From the NCBI RefSeq assembly GCF_055900595.2, contig NZ_CM148325.1: a stretch of DNA of 64,000 nucleotides; one strand, given 5' to 3'. A program made the position numbers and the translations under genes. The notes beneath the pieces are model-generated. The model had not been told where the DNA came from, ran no database searches, and was given only the letters and a program-made list of their open reading frames with translations. Positions 1-39,080 of this stretch are shown piece after piece; positions within the stretch are counted from its first letter, which is position 1; each line of letters opens with the position of its first letter.

Positions 1-83
1 TTACTACGATTGGTTTGGTTGGGTCTGGAAGGATTTGCTGTACTGCGTGAATAGCGTTTTGCTGATGTGCTGGAGATCGAATT

Positions 84-296
84 TCAAAGGTCAGTTTTTT
101 CATGACTTCCCTCTCTAACAGATTTCAGGTTATTCCACTCCGTTACCGCACTGCGATAATTCGCGGCCGCCACAGCAGCGTGGTTAGCGCAGTAGATTTG
201 GCACCCGTTCTCCATGTCGAATATTGTCGGTGATTTTCCGCATTTACATTTTTTGGCACGCGGTGCGTCTGAACACATTCCGTTAACGGTGTCCAT
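84..296 (-). CDS. Hypothetical Cys-rich small protein (nin-region position)
   Basis: 70-aa ORF downstream of replication genes, several Cys pairs; no family recognised. Confidence 0.4.
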   Translation of the reverse strand: MDTVNGMCSDAPRAKKCKCGKSPTIFDMENGCQIYCANHAAVAAANYRSAVTEWNNLKSVREGSHEKTDL

Positions 297-320
297 TAGG
301 ATCCCCCTAGTTCTTAATCC

Positions 321-350
321 AATAAAAAAGGGCTACTGTGTAAATAGCCC
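321..350 (-). terminator. Putative rho-independent terminator (tR2-like position)
   Basis: Hairpin GGGCTA...TAGCCC (330..350) followed on the minus strand by a T-run. Confidence 0.35.
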
Positions 351-381
351 CTGTTATTAGCCCAGTGATGTAGATGGTCAT

Positions 382-2262
382 TTAATACTCCGTCACGTTT
401 TCCTGTCGCCACGCCTCGTCATATTCCGATTTCGGCATATTGGCGATGTAGCTATATGGCGATCCTGATTCAAGTTGCAGGAACTGGTGCGATTGCTCGT
501 CAAGGAACAACGGGACACCACCTTCCCAACCTTCGCCGTTACGTTGTTTTTCAAGCATCAAAACAGATGCCGGAGATGCCAGTAGCTGTTCGTCCTTCTC
601 TGACATCTTTTCACCACTCTGAACTCTCTGTAACGCTCTCTCGCGAGCCTTGTTACGCCAGATGATGAAAAGGTTGTCTGTCAGGTCTGTTATCGCTCCA
701 GAGCCTTTTACGTCCATTTTCCCGGTTGGTTTTTCTTCGCTGTCTCCTTTTCGCGAGTGAGTAACGAGAATGACGTGGGAGTTTGTTTTGTTTTTGAAGT
801 CGCAAATCGAGTCAACAAACGCCTTCTGCCCGTTATAGTCATCGTCGCCTATGCCACATTTCATCAGGCTGTCGATGATGAATAACTGGATCCCGTATCG
901 GCGGCGAGCGTAGTCGAATATTTCGATCAGCCTGTCGGCTTTCGCCGTTCCGGTCAGGCCAAACACCCAGAGTCTTTCGTCATAAAATTTAAATGCAGAG
1001 TCAATTTCCAGCACTGGCGGCATCTTGCAGCACGTTGCCTGACGGGTAAGGCGCTTAAGGAGAATACCAGGCTTCAGCTCAAGTGACGCGATGCACGTCT
1101 TCACACCCTGACGCATTGCCTCAAGTGCCATATGCCCGACAACCTCCGTTTTTCCGTGACCGTTCACACCATTGACCAGCGTCAACTCGGCCTCACGGAA
1201 CTGGAATTTATCTGCCAGAGATTCCCACGGTGGATTAAACAGATACTGCTGCTTGCCGTAGAAAGCGTTGATAGTGTCCTGGTAAAACTCTCGCGCGCTG
1301 TAGAGTTCTTCAGGATCGAAGTAGGATGCCGTGCCAATGTACTGCCAGATTTCATCCTCGGTAACACCGTTCATCAGGCATTCGTTGATGTCTTTGTACG
1401 GCAGAGTAACAAGACGGCAACGATGTTCACCGAGTCGGCTTGCGATTTCCCTTGCGGCTTCACGACCAACATCATCAACGTCCATCGAGATGAATATTTC
1501 CTCAAACCTGTCGAGGTTGTGATACTCAAACTCAATCCACTGCTGCTTAGCGCCTTTCCCGCCACCAAACGGCACGGATAACGCCGAGATGCCGTATTGC
1601 GCATAGCTCATACAGTCAATTTCGCCTTCGCAAAGTACAACAGCCCTCACGCCAGCGTCCAGAGCCTGCCATCCGAACAGACAAGGTTCGCAATCACCTT
1701 CTGCCATAATGACTTTCTTCCCGTCCGGGCGCTCAGTGCTGATTCGCTTGACCTGCAACAACTCACCATCGCGTTTGTACGGAATCACCAGAGCATCCAG
1801 TTCCCGCTCTCCATTCCACACCTTGCCGCTGACAACCTCGTATCGCTTTACGATTTCTGGCGATATGCCACGCGATTGCAGGTACTCAAGATGGGATTCT
1901 GTTCTGGTAACGTAGCGGGCTATTTTCTTGCGATCAGGTCTGGAGAATTTCTTCTCACGTTTGGCATCGAAATGGTGATCGTCATCCTTGATACCGAGAA
2001 ATGCTTTCGCTTCCTGCATAGCCTGATGCAGGTTAATTCCACGACATGCCATCCACAAATCAAGCATGTCACCGCCGTCTCCCTCAGCGAAATCAGCCCA
2101 TTTTTTCTTGCCGCTAAGATTGACCTTAAGGCTGTTTCCCTTGTCACCGTTGACGTTACCGGCAACCCACTCATGCCCCTCTTTCTTGCCGTTTGGCAAC
2201 AGGTGCGGAGCCACCCTGTCAACCTGCGCCCAAAGCAGGTCGCTAAGTTCACTTGGCGTCAT
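382..2262 (-). CDS. Bifunctional DNA primase / replicative helicase (TOPRIM + DnaB-like ATPase)
   Basis: 626 aa; TOPRIM-like LCEGEIDCMS, Walker A GVNGHGKT, Walker B-like FIIDSL; sits where lambda P would be. Confidence 0.85.
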   Translation of the reverse strand: MTPSELSDLLWAQVDRVAPHLLPNGKKEGHEWVAGNVNGDKGNSLKVNLSGKKKWADFAEGDGGDMLDLWMACRGINLHQAMQEAKAFLGIKDDDHHFDAKREKKFSRPDRKKIARYVTRTESHLEYLQSRGISPEIVKRYEVVSGKVWNGERELDALVIPYKRDGELLQVKRISTERPDGKKVIMAEGDCEPCLFGWQALDAGVRAVVLCEGEIDCMSYAQYGISALSVPFGGGKGAKQQWIEFEYHNLDRFEEIFISMDVDDVGREAAREIASRLGEHRCRLVTLPYKDINECLMNGVTEDEIWQYIGTASYFDPEELYSAREFYQDTINAFYGKQQYLFNPPWESLADKFQFREAELTLVNGVNGHGKTEVVGHMALEAMRQGVKTCIASLELKPGILLKRLTRQATCCKMPPVLEIDSAFKFYDERLWVFGLTGTAKADRLIEIFDYARRRYGIQLFIIDSLMKCGIGDDDYNGQKAFVDSICDFKNKTNSHVILVTHSRKGDSEEKPTGKMDVKGSGAITDLTDNLFIIWRNKARERALQRVQSGEKMSEKDEQLLASPASVLMLEKQRNGEGWEGGVPLFLDEQSHQFLQLESGSPYSYIANMPKSEYDEAWRQENVTEY

Positions 2263-2366
2263 GATTCCCTCAGATTGAGATTTTTAAACCAGAAATCGAC
2301 AAATGAAATACTTAACCAGCCGTGGTTATAACCAGCGACCAGTAGCGATTTGATTTTTGATTTCAT
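2259..2366 (-). CDS. Possible 35-aa ORF coupled between initiator and primase-helicase
   Basis: ATG with AGGTGA SD; stop overlaps primase start (ATGA); below ORF-track cutoff. Confidence 0.25.
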   Translation of the reverse strand: MKSKIKSLLVAGYNHGWLSISFVDFWFKNLNLRES

Positions 2367-2369
2367 GGT

Positions 2370-3230
2370 TCACCTGTCGAAAAACACGTAGCCAGTTTTC
2401 GATACGGTGATTGCGGATGATGGTTTGGATTGTGGTTGAATGGTTTCTGGCTTTTCGTCGTTCCAGCGTTGACCGTTCAGGTAGCTCGATGGTAACAACC
2501 TGTCGAATCCGAACTGCTTACCATTCCTGCATGCGATGTCTTCTGCCAACATCGTGGCAAACTCGCTTGCCGTACCCCTGGTAGTTTTACGCCATTCCCT
2601 GAACTGTGTTCTGAATGCCGAAGCTGCGTTTTTCTTCCCGGCTTTCCGCATGCCTGCACACCAGAATATTTCCTCGAATGCCTTGTCGGTTTCTTCGTGA
2701 CGGTCAGGTGATTTTTCACACTCCGTCCGAACACTTTCGGACATAGTGTTTTTATTATTTCTTTTTTCTTTTGTAATAGTTTCTTTTGTGTGTCCCTGTT
2801 TTGGTGACAGCGCTGTCACCATTTTGGTGACACTTTTTGTCACCAATGCAGTGACATTATCACCAGAGTAGTGACACCCTTCGATTTGCCATTCCTCGAT
2901 GTTCTTGTTAGGCCCGATTTGCTGGCCTTCGCGAAGGATAACCTTCATCGCGATAAGCTCATTCTTGGCCTTGTTTACCTTCTGTCTTGGCAGCCTGGTA
3001 ATTTGAGCTAACTGACTATCAGAGATGCGATCCATCTTTTTACCGTAGCCGTATGTTTTACGGCATATGGCGTGGGCAACCTTGCTCTGATTTTTCGTTA
3101 AATCTGCGCCGATAAGCTCTTCATACAGGGCATTTGCAAGACGGGTATAACCATCTTCAACTTCTGCCACACGACGCTCCACAGGCCGTTGTGAAGGCCT
3201 TAAATGTGTTACGGTTGCAAGATTACTCAT
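2370..3230 (-). CDS. Replication initiator, lambda O-family N-terminal domain
   Basis: N-terminal region resembles lambda O (DGYxRL...ADLTK...KTYG...MDRIxDSQL...GPNKNI.EW); iterons lie inside the gene. Confidence 0.75.
2801..2880. repeat. Origin iterons (GGTGACA/TGTCACC repeats) with adjacent AT-rich tract
   Basis: At least 6 direct/inverted GTGACA motifs within 80 bp, flanked by AT-rich 2745..2790, in the initiator linker as in lambda ori. Confidence 0.55.
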
Positions 3231-3369
3231 GACCTTTCTCCTTCTGCATCAGCTTCACTTTTTCCAACTCAGCCCGGAATCGACCAGGCTGCTTGAAGCT
3301 GGACAGGAAGCGATCACGTAGTATGTGTTTGTGAATTTTGTCCTGGTAAGGACTGAGTTGTTTTGTCAT
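3223..3369 (-). CDS. Hypothetical basic 48-aa protein between cII and the initiator
   Basis: [18 protein letters not shown]... with AGGAG SD 6 nt upstream; 3-prime end overlaps initiator start. Confidence 0.4.
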
Positions 3370-3403
3370 AATTACTCCTGTGGATTGATCCAGTCTTTCT
3401 ACA

Positions 3404-3682
3404 TCAGGCCTCGAAGAATTCGCCGTTCTTCGGGGCTTTTTCTTTTGTCAGCATTCTGGCTACTTTCTTAGCCAGTTCCGCCAACTCCTCGTCTTCAACA
3501 CCCCATTCAAGAACAGCCAGAAGCATTCCCATTTTTGGGATGAAGCTGTCTTTCCATCGTGAAATTTGCGATTCATTAATCCCTAACGCGTCGGCCACCT
3601 TTCGCTGACCACGTACAGCAATTCGATTTAGGATGTTGCTTGTAATTGCATTCGCTTTCTTGCGAGTACTTGTAAGTTGCAT
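3404..3682 (-). CDS. cII: CII-like transcriptional activator
   Basis: Matches lambda CII core (SQISRWK...[10 protein letters not shown]). Confidence 0.8.
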
Positions 3683-3761
3683 ATGTAAGTATTTCCTTAG
3701 ATAACAATTGATTGAATGTATGCAAATAAATGCATACACCATAGGTGTGGTTTAATTTGAT

Positions 3762-3793
3762 GCCCTTTTTCAGGGCTGGGATGTGTAAGAGCG
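3762..3793 (-). promoter_or_regulatory. nutR (boxA + boxB)
   Basis: Minus strand reads boxA CGCTCTTACA then boxB GCCCTGAAAAAGGGC, between cro and cII. Confidence 0.65.
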
Positions 3794-3801
3794 GGAATGT
3801 C

Positions 3802-5154
<1,353 letters not shown>

Positions 5155-5179
5155 TCCCCACCTCAATCTCGATAACCAA

Positions 5180-5220
5180 AAACAAACTATTTTTCATTTA
5201 AAAACAATGGAGTTTGTTTT
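5180..5220 (+). terminator. Possible terminator of the immunity transcript
   Basis: Inverted repeat AAACAAACT...AGTTTGTTT followed by T-rich sequence; large loop, weak. Confidence 0.3.
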
Positions 5221-5240
5221 TCACGCCCCTTTTTACAATA

Positions 5241-5283
5241 TTTCTTGTTTACAACATACAATCTTTCTTGTAATTTTAAGCCA
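5241..5283 (+). promoter_or_regulatory. pL-like promoter with left operators
   Basis: TTTACA, 17 bp, TAATTT upstream of a lambda-pL-like transcript start; two TTTCTTGT operator repeats overlap. Confidence 0.5.
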
Positions 5284-5315
5284 TCAGCAGGACGCACTGA
5301 CCACCATGAAGGTGA

Positions 5316-5346
5316 GGCTCTTAAAAATTAAGCCCTGAAGAAGGGC
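5316..5346 (+). promoter_or_regulatory. nutL (boxA + boxB)
   Basis: GGCTCTTAA then GCCCTGAAGAAGGGC, as in lambda nutL. Confidence 0.8.
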
Positions 5347-5544
5347 AGCATTCAAAGCAGAAGGCTTTGGGATTGGATGAATGAGCAGGCTGATGCTCGA
5401 CCAATGTATAAACAGCGCTCATGGCAAGCAGTAACCAATCTGCGCCTCAAGACAGCGTCACTGGTAGTGCGGGCGCTCTAACCAGTAAGCCGGGGTTCAG
5501 CGCCGGCCATCCAATCACCAAAGCTAACTGACAGGAGAATCCAG

Positions 5545-5877
5545 ATGGATGCACAAACACGCCGCCGCGAACGTCGCGCAGAGAAACAGGCTCAATGGAA
5601 AGCAGCAAATCCCCTGTTGGTTGGGGTAAGCGCAAAACCAGTTAACCGCCCTATTCTCTCGCTGAATCGCAAACCGAAATCACGAGTAGAAAGCGCACTG
5701 AATCCGATAGACCTTACGGTGCTGGCTGAATACTACGAACAGATTGAAAGCAACCTGCAACGTATTGAGCGCAAGAATCAGCGCACATGGTACAGCAAGC
5801 CACGGAGTGAAATGGGTGTGACATGCTCAGGCCGCCAGAAGCAACGCGGAAAATCAATTCCGGCTTATTACGATTGA
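5545..5877 (+). CDS. N: Antiterminator N
   Basis: MDAQTRRRERRAEKQAQWKAANPLL..., Arg-rich motif, near-identical to lambda N over most of its length. Confidence 0.92.
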   Translation: MDAQTRRRERRAEKQAQWKAANPLLVGVSAKPVNRPILSLNRKPKSRVESALNPIDLTVLAEYYEQIESNLQRIERKNQRTWYSKPRSEMGVTCSGRQKQRGKSIPAYYD

Positions 5878-5885
5878 GGTGAGAT

Positions 5886-6137
5886 ATGGAATTTCATGAA
5901 AGTGCGATTTGTGATTTTCGCGCTAACGCAAATTCAGTAAAACCACAGCCAATTGCAGTTCTTTTTAAAACAATGGGAGCGTGGGCTGTTTTATGCTTCG
6001 CCTCTGACGACACTGATGCAAGAATGGCAATAGGCCAAGAGATGGAGATGGACCCGACAAACGATGAATTCATAATTTATGGCGCTCCATCTAATTACTT
6101 ACTTGATACCTGCAACATTTACAACAAGGCTGCCTGA
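5886..6137 (+). CDS. Hypothetical protein (83 aa)
   Basis: ORF with GAGGTGAG SD immediately after N. Confidence 0.5.
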   Translation: MEFHESAICDFRANANSVKPQPIAVLFKTMGAWAVLCFASDDTDARMAIGQEMEMDPTNDEFIIYGAPSNYLLDTCNIYNKAA

Positions 6138-38932: not shown

Positions 38933-39080
38933 AGATAGTCGAATGGTGAGGAAAAGTCACTCGAATTACGTATGAGATGACGAATGCCACACTTTGCGTC
39001 TTATTCCTCCGACGTAGAGTCGTTTACGCAGCAAGCGCGGAGTATGTCATCAGGGTCAGAATTGAAATTGAGAGATGCCT

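Follow-up and report, generated by a model that had tools for sequence, protein, structure and literature searches.

The window analysed here, a stretch of 64,000 nucleotides, contains the replication module of a lambdoid prophage; modules of this type were annotated first in phage ES18 of Salmonella. On the minus strand, the gene of an O-family initiator is followed by a micro-gene of 35 codons and then by the gene of a T7 gp4-like primase-helicase (Table 1), while a 48-aa DUF2740 gene sits between cII and O and overlaps the start of O by 8 nt. According to the analysis below, it is very probable that an origin lies inside the initiator gene and that the 35-codon frame is a genuine gene. The window type is common, its O gene region (2200-3300, covering both the origin and the micro-gene) being found in 169 complete E. 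coli genomes, counted at a coverage of at least 80% of this interval. An Rfam scan of window positions 1-6000 gave no match, and the hits of a promoter scan were no commoner than expected by chance.

Table 1. Features of the replication module, in the direction of transcription (window coordinates).
Feature	Position	Strand or length	Sequence, family or remark
DUF2740 gene, 48 aa	3223..3369	-	Pfam PF10872 (E = 9e-29)
O-family replication initiator, 286 aa	2370..3230	-	Pfam PF04492, TIGR01610
Iteron 1 (gene order)	2858..2876		TGTCAC TACTCTG GTGATA; in register with lambda iteron 1
Iteron 2	2838..2856		TGTCAC TGCATTG GTGACA; 20-bp step from iteron 1, the lambda value
Iteron 3	2814..2832		TGTCAC CAAAATG GTGACA; 24-bp step from iteron 2, the lambda value
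Iteron 4	2791..2809		TGTCAC CAAAACA GGGACA; 23-bp step from iteron 3, the lambda value
AT-rich tract, presumed DNA-unwinding element	2745..2790	46 bp	homologous to the lambda ori tract
Small dyad	2725..2742		GTCCGAA-N4-TTCGGAC; just past the AT-rich tract
O to micro-gene junction	2364..2375	-	AGGTGA (RBS-like, contains O stop), ACC, ATG
gp60-family micro-gene, 35 codons	2259..2366	-	MKSKIKSLLVAGYNHGWLSISFVDFWFKNLNLRES; PHROG 21848
Micro-gene to primase-helicase junction	2259..2271	-	GAGGGA, AATC, ATGA
Bifunctional primase-helicase, 626 aa, T7 gp4/Twinkle family	382..2262	-	Pfam Toprim_2, AAA_25, DnaB_C

The initiator consists of two parts with different affinities. Pfam Phage_rep_O (PF04492) matches residues 20-114 with E = 1e-37, and the N-terminal domain scores 128.7 bits against a cut-off of 28.7 for this model and 105.5 against 45.5 for TIGR01610. 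By BLASTP, residues 1-157, which comprise the N-terminal origin-binding domain and the linker, are 49% identical to lambda O, whereas the same comparison found no similarity to lambda O past residue 157. The C-terminal domain (residues 158-286, about 2373-2759) is, judged from this alignment, unrelated to the P-binding domain of lambda O. In homologues with other N-terminal domains, such as those of 24B and the Stx2a phages, the match ends at about window position 2754, the domain junction. The C-terminal domain accompanies the primase-helicase in combination with at least three types of N-terminal domain, and a fourth type shares only the last ~18 initiator residues together with the micro-gene and the primase-helicase. 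This distribution indicates that the C-terminal domain is co-inherited with the primase-helicase.

Inside the initiator gene, at codons 119-147 of 286 and just past the Pfam O domain, lie four 19-bp dyad iterons (2791-2876) with the consensus TGTCACC-N5-GGTGACA. Each has 0 or 1 mismatches to the pattern TGTCAC-N7-GTGACA; the right half of iteron 4 is degenerate and merges into sequence common to iteron 4 of lambda. When up to two mismatches were allowed, this pattern matched seven times in the 64-kb window, against 2.07 matches expected, and four of the seven are contiguous at 2791-2876; a Poisson calculation for the whole window puts the probability of finding four of them inside 86 bp at less than 1e-6. 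The hexamer GTGACA on its own shows no window-wide enrichment (30 found, 28.9 expected), but 6 of these 30 copies lie within 2804-2876. The 20/24/23-bp steps between iteron starts are those of the lambda iterons, which start at 39034/39054/39078/39101.

The AT-rich tract flanks the last iteron on its downstream side. Its GC content is 19.6%, compared with 46.7% for the whole initiator gene, and it is strongly strand-asymmetric, being A-rich on the gene strand. In an alignment to lambda and ES18, the tract is nearly identical through ACACAAAAGAnACTATTACAAAAGAAAAAAGAAA. The small dyad that follows has longer imperfect arms at 2718-2731 and 2736-2749. Its GTCCGA...TCGGAC core is retained at the domain junction in loci whose initiators have unrelated N-terminal domains and is degenerate in other loci; because of this degeneracy, and because the dyad also codes for a conserved S-E/D..R-T motif, constraint on the DNA and constraint on the protein are inseparable here. 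The dyad may be an origin element.

The initial annotation had placed GTGACA-type iterons at 2801-2880, in the coding linker of an O-family initiator and beside an AT-rich tract, and had likened the arrangement to the lambda origin with different repeats. The repeats are real, their location in the linker directly after the Pfam O domain is confirmed, and the lambda-like architecture is upheld by the register, the spacing and the related N-terminal domain. However, they form four 19-bp dyads rather than a loose set of GTGACA motifs, and the proposed interval misses the degenerate iteron 4. The AT-rich tract is present as described, but it is more than an analogue of that of lambda, being homologous and nearly identical to it.

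A set of 64 haplotypes has 83 variable sites. Not one of them lies in the 56 half-site nucleotides or in the 46 nucleotides of the AT-rich tract (P ~ 2e-5), and the three that fall within the iterons are confined to the spacers. Relatives whose codons for the N-terminal domain have diverged by 13-15% at the nucleotide level show 0-1 changes in 48 half-site nucleotides. The iterons do encode a repetitive peptide, and the repeats could on that account be no origin at all but the by-product of a peptide motif (VT-x-x-VT) in the initiator, or else an operator for autoregulation. Selection on the peptide, however, fails to explain them because at the DNA level each of them has inverted-repeat symmetry, and the third-codon positions of the half-sites and the AT-rich tract are invariant (0/36 variable, P = 4e-4). 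The position, number and spacing of the repeats, as well as the AT-rich tract, also coincide with the experimentally defined lambda origin, whose mechanism is summarised in PMC7466680. Finally, in O relatives that are 45-61% identical, this position is occupied by other iterons (lambda-type, TGTTACC..GGTAACA, TTACCCGAATCAGGTAA), and the iteron sequence co-varies with the initiator N-terminal domain. We therefore regard a non-origin role of the repeats as extremely unlikely; by sequence and by analogy with lambda, the iterons are putative initiator binding sites of a lambda-type origin.

The likeness to lambda extends to the location of the origin between the codons of the N- and C-terminal domains and to the gene order, downstream of cro and cII. 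The half-sites differ, being ATCCCTC/GAGGGAT in lambda and TGTCACC/GGTGACA in the window. The module is also not a lambda O/P system, since the C-terminal domain of its initiator is unrelated and it is without a P gene; where lambda has P, the window has the 35-aa gene and a phage-encoded primase-helicase.

The micro-gene product matches PHROG 21848 (E = 4e-26 over 34 of 35 positions) and corresponds to the annotated proteins gp60 of ES18 and gp51 of epsilon34. In all 160 loci compared, 80 from close relatives and 80 diverse ones, the frame is exactly 35 codons long and lies between the initiator and the primase-helicase. Synonymous differences exceed nonsynonymous ones (pS 0.593 vs pN 0.213, with pN < pS in 1074 of 1081 pairs), and pN/pS is 0.36 in frame, against 1.16 and 1.86 in the other two frames. 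Nine residues are invariant, including an AGYN-G core, and the start codon is ATG except in two of 32 peptide variants, which begin with GTG or ATT. Two alleles of the micro-gene are ~78% identical to each other, while the adjacent flanks are nearly identical. These observations indicate that the micro-gene is a real protein gene under purifying selection.

At its upstream end, only ACC separates the O stop TGA (2372-2370) from the micro-gene ATG (2366-2364), and AGGTGA overlaps the stop; the 80 close relatives have either TGA-ACC-ATG (75/80) or TGA-ATC-ATG (5/80). At its downstream end, the TGA overlaps the ATG of the primase-helicase as ATGA (2262-2259), with GAGGGA 4 nt upstream, and across the 80 diverse loci the downstream start lies -4 to +3 nt from the micro-gene stop. 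Such stop-start junctions on both sides have the geometry expected for translational coupling, and from this geometry we predict that translation of the three genes should be coupled.

The tight junctions, present on both sides in all loci, would also suit a 35-codon frame that is a non-protein spacer relaying ribosomes, or an RNA structure controlling translation of the primase-helicase. The window allele does form a long hairpin spanning both start regions (-45.4 kcal/mol, z = -2.9), and the micro-gene is dispensable in some relatives: the homologous modules of Vibrio phages (primase-helicase 60% identical) and Pseudomonas phages (42%) lack it and have a direct overlap between the initiator and primase-helicase genes, and so it is not universally required. 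However, the synonymous bias occurs in the micro-gene frame only (pS 0.59 vs pN 0.21), the nine invariant residues come with a fixed length, and 22 diverse alleles yield no conserved RNA structure (7 pairs, -5 kcal/mol, almost no covariation). A conserved RNA structure over the micro-gene was rejected, since these 22 alleles have no fold in common, and we consider a spacer or RNA role of the frame very improbable.

For lambda O, a read-through product, O', was reportedly described by Yates et al. in 1977, and the micro-peptide might likewise be mainly a C-terminal extension of the initiator, made by read-through of its UGA stop. The O stop is in frame with the micro-gene in the window and in all 80 close relatives (TGA-ACC/ATC-ATG), and in one divergent lineage (L014/L015, protein P0005) sense codons replace the stop, so that the C-terminal domain and the micro-gene form a single 131-aa frame. 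The assemblies that carry this lineage, however, have initiator and primase-helicase genes that are themselves broken by frameshifts, and the fusion may therefore reflect decay or sequencing error. Moreover, the in-frame arrangement occurs in only 7 of the 80 diverse loci, whereas 43 have an ATGA-type overlap and 19 a 7-nt spacer; the micro-gene nearly always has its own ATG, and an RBS-like sequence lies upstream of it in the window-type and L016-type alleles. With the initiator stop and the micro-gene out of frame in most lineages, the read-through fusion was rejected as very improbable, and a separately started protein gene is the reading that we retain.

Searches with gp60 against Pfam, NCBIfam, PADLOC and PDB sequences gave no matches, an exhaustive protein search with the peptide gave only five hits, of which two looked spurious (repeat proteins), and 97-101-aa 'pentapeptide repeat' proteins that clustered with gp60 proved to be unrelated, a clustering artefact. 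A literature search by the peptide sequence returned nothing, and the literature yielded no experimental work on origins of this type or on gp60. The gp60 gene is omitted from the Sf101, SEN22 and 24B records and from RefSeq E. coli annotations, and it is present in Stx2a-converting phages too. AlphaFold2 models gp60 as a helical hairpin (pLDDT 84), and the protein is predicted to be a basic helical hairpin. A membrane peptide was considered and rejected, as the maximum 19-residue Kyte-Doolittle mean is 0.7-0.9 and charged residues interrupt the hydrophobic stretch. When the O C-terminal domain was fused to gp60, the domain was modelled as a helical bundle (pLDDT 74-85) with a disordered tail, and the confidence of the gp60 part did not rise above that of gp60 modelled alone; a contact between the tail and gp60 is for these two reasons unsupported by the model. 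Foldseek found no match to the fusion model in the PDB.

The third gene joins a Toprim primase and a DnaB-family helicase domain in one polypeptide. It matches PHROG 239 (E = 1e-171) and, in the PDB, T7 gp4 (5ikn and 6n7i, E ~ 1e-23) and Twinkle, and the motifs CEGEID, MDVDD and GVNGHGKT (acidic Toprim, Walker A/B) can be read from its sequence. The protein shares with T7 gene 4 and Twinkle the fusion of a Toprim primase to a DnaB/RecA-type hexameric helicase domain. Unlike T7 gene 4, it is without an N-terminal Cys4 zinc-binding domain: no Cys4 zinc ribbon was found, only one Cys and no CxxC pair occur in residues 1-100, and the PDB matches begin at query residue 165-195. The predicted origins differ as well, with an initiator-bound iteron origin for the window protein and a transcription-primed origin for T7. 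The possible 35-aa ORF and the downstream primase-helicase of the initial annotation have thus become a conserved gene and a member of the T7 gp4/Twinkle family, and its view of the module as distinct from lambda O/P holds true.

This architecture is not new, since ES18 was annotated in 2005 with the same layout, and the module is for that reason mostly ordinary; its iteron specificity is new only as a variant. The reference for gp59-gp60-gp61 of ES18 is Casjens et al. 2005. The ES18 record (AY736146) has a rep_origin inside gp59, a 35-aa gp60 and gp61 as primase/helicase, and the same three features are annotated for genes 50-52 of epsilon34 (EU570103; PMC2629481); what is said here about ES18 is drawn from the GenBank record of that phage and from the paper on epsilon34. 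Both phages have the same initiator C-terminal domain and the same 35-aa gp60 (allele A in ES18) as the window, and their primase-helicase is ~94% identical to it at the protein level. They carry, however, the iterons of lambda itself with a lambda-like N-terminal domain, whereas the N-terminal domain of the window is ~50% identical to theirs and comes with its own iterons. Phages Sf101, mEp043, SEN22 and vB_EcoP-720R6 are of the same type as the window, with no origin annotated in the Sf101 and SEN22 records. In the Stx phage phi24B (vB_EcoP_24B), the genes called 'O' and 'P' encode an initiator C-terminal domain and a primase-helicase that are, like the micro-gene, 97-98% identical to those of the window; its micro-gene is allele B and unannotated in the record. 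The phi24B initiator has an N-terminal domain of the HTH_36 winged-helix type, GGGGCAGGAGCTGCCC repeats replace the iterons, and the primase-helicase has an intein.

In the direction of transcription, the probable origin consists of the four iterons, the 46-bp AT-rich tract and the small dyad. By homology with lambda, the iterons would be bound by dimers of the initiator N-terminal domain, which would wrap the DNA to form an O-some, and the AT-rich tract would then melt. The C-terminal domain and tail of the initiator would recruit the phage's own T7 gp4-like primase-helicase, a route that would replace that of lambda P and host DnaB, and the stop-start junctions would tie translation of gp60 to that of the initiator and the primase-helicase. 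We infer, tentatively, that gp60 might be a small accessory subunit for recruiting or loading the primase-helicase. It is conceivable, though rather doubtful, that the gp60 family is an overlooked third component in initiator-dependent loading of phage-encoded gp4-like primase-helicases in enterobacterial lambdoid phages, with the initiator tail, gp60 and the primase-helicase as one co-inherited functional unit. With similar reserve, this unit could be attachable to at least eight unrelated origin-binding domains, and gp60 might possibly act as an adaptor or ring-loading factor, as lambda P does for DnaB. The co-variation of the initiator tail, gp60 and the primase-helicase could also reflect mere physical linkage.

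The module illustrates that lambdoid replication modules are assembled from exchangeable parts, namely an origin-binding domain with its iterons, a partner-recruiting domain with its tail, and a helicase cassette. It adds a further iteron specificity class, in which the half-sites are unlike those of lambda while the geometry and the unwinding element are those of lambda, and which offers a natural swap experiment on how O recognises its sites. gp60 is often unannotated although it ranks with the most tightly conserved parts of the cassette, and it presents a cheap, well-defined target for learning how a self-contained primase-helicase reaches an initiator-bound origin.

Inside the gene of the O-family initiator we found iterons and an adjoining AT-rich tract, as the initial annotation had described. 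The pattern TGTCAC-N7-GTGACA, with up to 2 mismatches allowed, matched 7 times in the 64 kb against 2.07 expected, and four iterons of this form are contiguous. The bare hexamer showed no enrichment over the whole window; the significant feature is the clustering and dyad arrangement of the iterons, for which the estimated chance probability is below 1e-6. Each iteron spans 19 bp in the register of lambda (TGTCACC-N5-GGTGACA), and their starts, taken in gene direction, lie 20, 24, and 23 bp apart, which is the spacing of the annotated lambda iterons (starts 39034, 39054, 39078, and 39101). When the window was aligned to lambda and to the Salmonella phage ES18, the repeats fell in register, and near-identity to lambda extended from the last iteron on through ACACAAAAGAnACTATTACAAAAGAAAAAAGAAA. 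The shared spacing and the half-sites TGTCACC/GGTGACA bear out a lambda-like origin layout with different repeats.

Features of the replication module and its surroundings
Feature	Position	Strand	Remarks
Primase-helicase, 626 aa	382-2262	-	Toprim and DnaB-type helicase domains
Micro-ORF, 35 codons	2259-2366	-	PHROG 21848, E = 4e-26
O-family initiator, 286 aa	2370-3230	-	Pfam Phage_rep_O at residues 20-114, E = 1e-37
Small dyad	2725-2742		GTCCGAA-N4-TTCGGAC; just past the AT-rich tract
AT-rich tract	2745-2790		19.6% GC versus 46.7% GC for the whole initiator gene
Four contiguous iterons	2791-2809, 2814-2832, 2838-2856, 2858-2876		TGTCAC-N7-GTGACA
DUF2740 gene, 48 aa	3223-3369	-	Between cII and initiator
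cII	3404-3742	-	First in the gene order of the module
Terminator-like hairpin	3406-3448	+	14 pairs, then a T-run; antisense to the cII 3' end
Immunity region	3802-4753		Presumably phage 434 cro and cI

The small dyad, GTCCGA..TCGGAC, marks the start of the C-terminal-domain codons and also codes for a conserved S-D/E..R-T motif. It is retained in the related loci L101 (as a perfect 18-bp palindrome) and L105 and others like them, including those whose initiators have unrelated N-terminal domains, and is degenerate in the PEQVRAE-type initiators.

Among 64 distinct initiator-gene haplotypes from phage and prophage contigs, 83 of the 861 nt are variable, and none falls within the 56 half-site or 46 AT-tract nucleotides (hypergeometric P = 1.6e-5); at the third-codon positions of these elements the count is 0 of 36 (P = 4e-4). 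The 3 variable positions internal to the iterons are all located in the central spacers. Relatives with 13-15% nucleotide difference in the N-terminal-domain codons carry 0-1 changes in 48 half-site nucleotides and 2-3 changes in 10 inter-iteron nucleotides. O-family relatives of 45-61% protein identity have other repeats in the same place and number and at nearly the same spacing: TCCCTC..GAGGGA, that of lambda, in ES18, the related locus L016, and others, TGTTACC..GGTAACA in Erwinia phage Midgardsormr38, and TTACCCGAATCAGGTAA in the related locus L174. In these comparisons, the binding domain covaries with its sites, as would be expected of an initiator-iteron pair.

The initiator shares 49% identity with lambda O across residues 1-157, beyond which the two show no similarity, and the gene downstream encodes a primase-helicase whose matches among solved structures are T7 gp4 (E about 1e-23) and Twinkle; the module is thus distinct from lambda O/P, as had been proposed. 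The C-terminal domain is 98-100% identical in initiators with different N-terminal domains. It is common to ES18 and Salmonella phage epsilon34, whose N-terminal domain is lambda-like, and to Stx phage 24B, which has an HTH_36 winged-helix N-terminal domain and its own GGGGCAGGAGCTGCCC repeats; nucleotide matches to these phages end at about window position 2754, where the AT tract is over. In the S107 and SI8 group, the common part is limited to the final 18 initiator residues plus the micro-ORF and the primase-helicase. The C-terminal domain of lambda O binds P (PMC7466680), and its counterpart in the window is inherited together with the primase-helicase, from which we infer that it would recruit that enzyme. 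In 24B (its 'P', L005 1505-4411), phiKp_30, and Stx2a_F451, an otherwise 98% identical primase-helicase is lengthened to 968 aa by an intein (Hint plus LAGLIDADG endonuclease) that follows the Walker A region; the primase-helicase of the window has no intein.

The micro-ORF, previously noted as a possible coding sequence, is a real gene. It is annotated with no function assigned as gp60 in ES18 and gene 51 in epsilon34, and is left without annotation in Sf101, SEN22, 24B, and RefSeq E. coli genomes. All 80 loci found via the initiator C-terminal domain have it intact at 35 codons, and so do all members of a second set of 80 more diverse loci found via a peptide motif. In every one of the latter, a large ORF (in 78 cases with a length of at least about 600 aa) begins -4 to +3 nt from the micro-ORF stop, and in all but one an upstream ORF of at least 100 aa ends within 7 nt of its start or overlaps it. 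Across 47 distinct nucleotide sequences, mean pS was 0.593 and mean pN 0.213, with pN the lower of the two in 1074 of 1081 pairs, while the other two frames gave pN/pS of 1.16 and 1.86. K6, L9, A11, G12, Y13, N14, G16, F27, and R33 are invariant in all 32 peptide variants. Two alleles diverge by 22% at the nucleotide level although their flanks are nearly identical, which places the mosaic boundaries at the ORF ends. The peptide is basic, its hydrophobicity is too low for a membrane helix, and AF2 modeled it as a two-helix hairpin (H2-15 and H20-29, pLDDT 84). In Klebsiella phage phiKp_30 (L010), an insertion of 125 nt at about 1650-1800 takes the place of the final codons and parts the micro-ORF from the primase-helicase start, the sole locus seen with a broken stop-start junction.

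An RNA structure over the micro-ORF could be suspected from the window's own allele, which folds well (z = -2.9), but 22 alleles have no conserved RNA structure. Read-through of the initiator's UGA into the micro-ORF would agree with the common frame of the two in the window's close relatives and with one lineage (protein P0005) that has no initiator stop codon; however, the two are out of frame in most lineages, and the fused lineage is drawn from assemblies with several frameshifts. As to possible packing of gp60 against the initiator tail, an AF2 model of the C-terminal domain joined to gp60 had a disordered tail and no higher confidence for the gp60 segment. In the divergent P0005 lineage (L014 1550-2053, L015 176-571), the C-terminal domain continues stop-free into the micro-ORF as one 131-aa ORF; since the initiator and primase-helicase genes of these contigs are frameshifted, the fusion may stem from prophage decay or from misassembly.

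The gp60 gene is present beside primase-helicases whose protein identity to that of the window is as low as about 59-61% (phages LMessi and EKP1), and is absent beside the homologues of Vibrio (60%) and Pseudomonas (42%), in which the initiator and primase-helicase genes overlap directly. The initiators upstream of it have at least 8 different N-termini, and their extreme C-terminal tails form two main families, one being ..SWY.P.DGSAEVFINQAAIER..RG and the other a separate 14-letter tail; divergent tails in loci L130 and L159 keep the EVF-type core of the ..SWY.P. family. Each tail family always goes with a micro-ORF allele group of its own, as would suit a tail, gp60, and primase-helicase that work as one unit, although physical linkage by itself could yield the same pairing.

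The immunity genes beside the module, which we take to be of phage 434 type, together with the replication module identify the window as a lambdoid prophage; on this reading, it joins 434 immunity to an ES18-type helicase cassette. The strong hairpin is placed and oriented as the terminator of a lambda oop-type antisense RNA would be, and Rfam returned no match for it. The DUF2740 gene is called 'tail protein' in PHROGs and in some RefSeq records, a label that is very unlikely to be right given its conserved early-right operon position.

In the 2005 annotation of ES18, a rep_origin 'similar to lambda ori' lies inside gp59, followed by gp60 and by gp61 ('putative primase/helicase; similar to phage T7 gene 4'), which is the architecture of the window. 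The epsilon34 paper revisits this layout, and origin-binding specificities differ among lambdoid phages (PMC2629481). However, the window belongs to a different specificity class from ES18, with a distinct N-terminal domain and TGTCACC/GGTGACA iterons. The same class occurs in the published phages Sf101, mEp043, SEN22, and vB_EcoP-720R6, and 169 complete E. coli genomes carry the window-type O gene region (2200-3300) at 80% coverage or more. The literature covered, which included few subscription papers, held no description of these iterons and no study of gp60. Therefore, the initial observation is confirmed and its interpretation supported: the iteron specificity is new, the architecture is well known, and the microprotein was already annotated.
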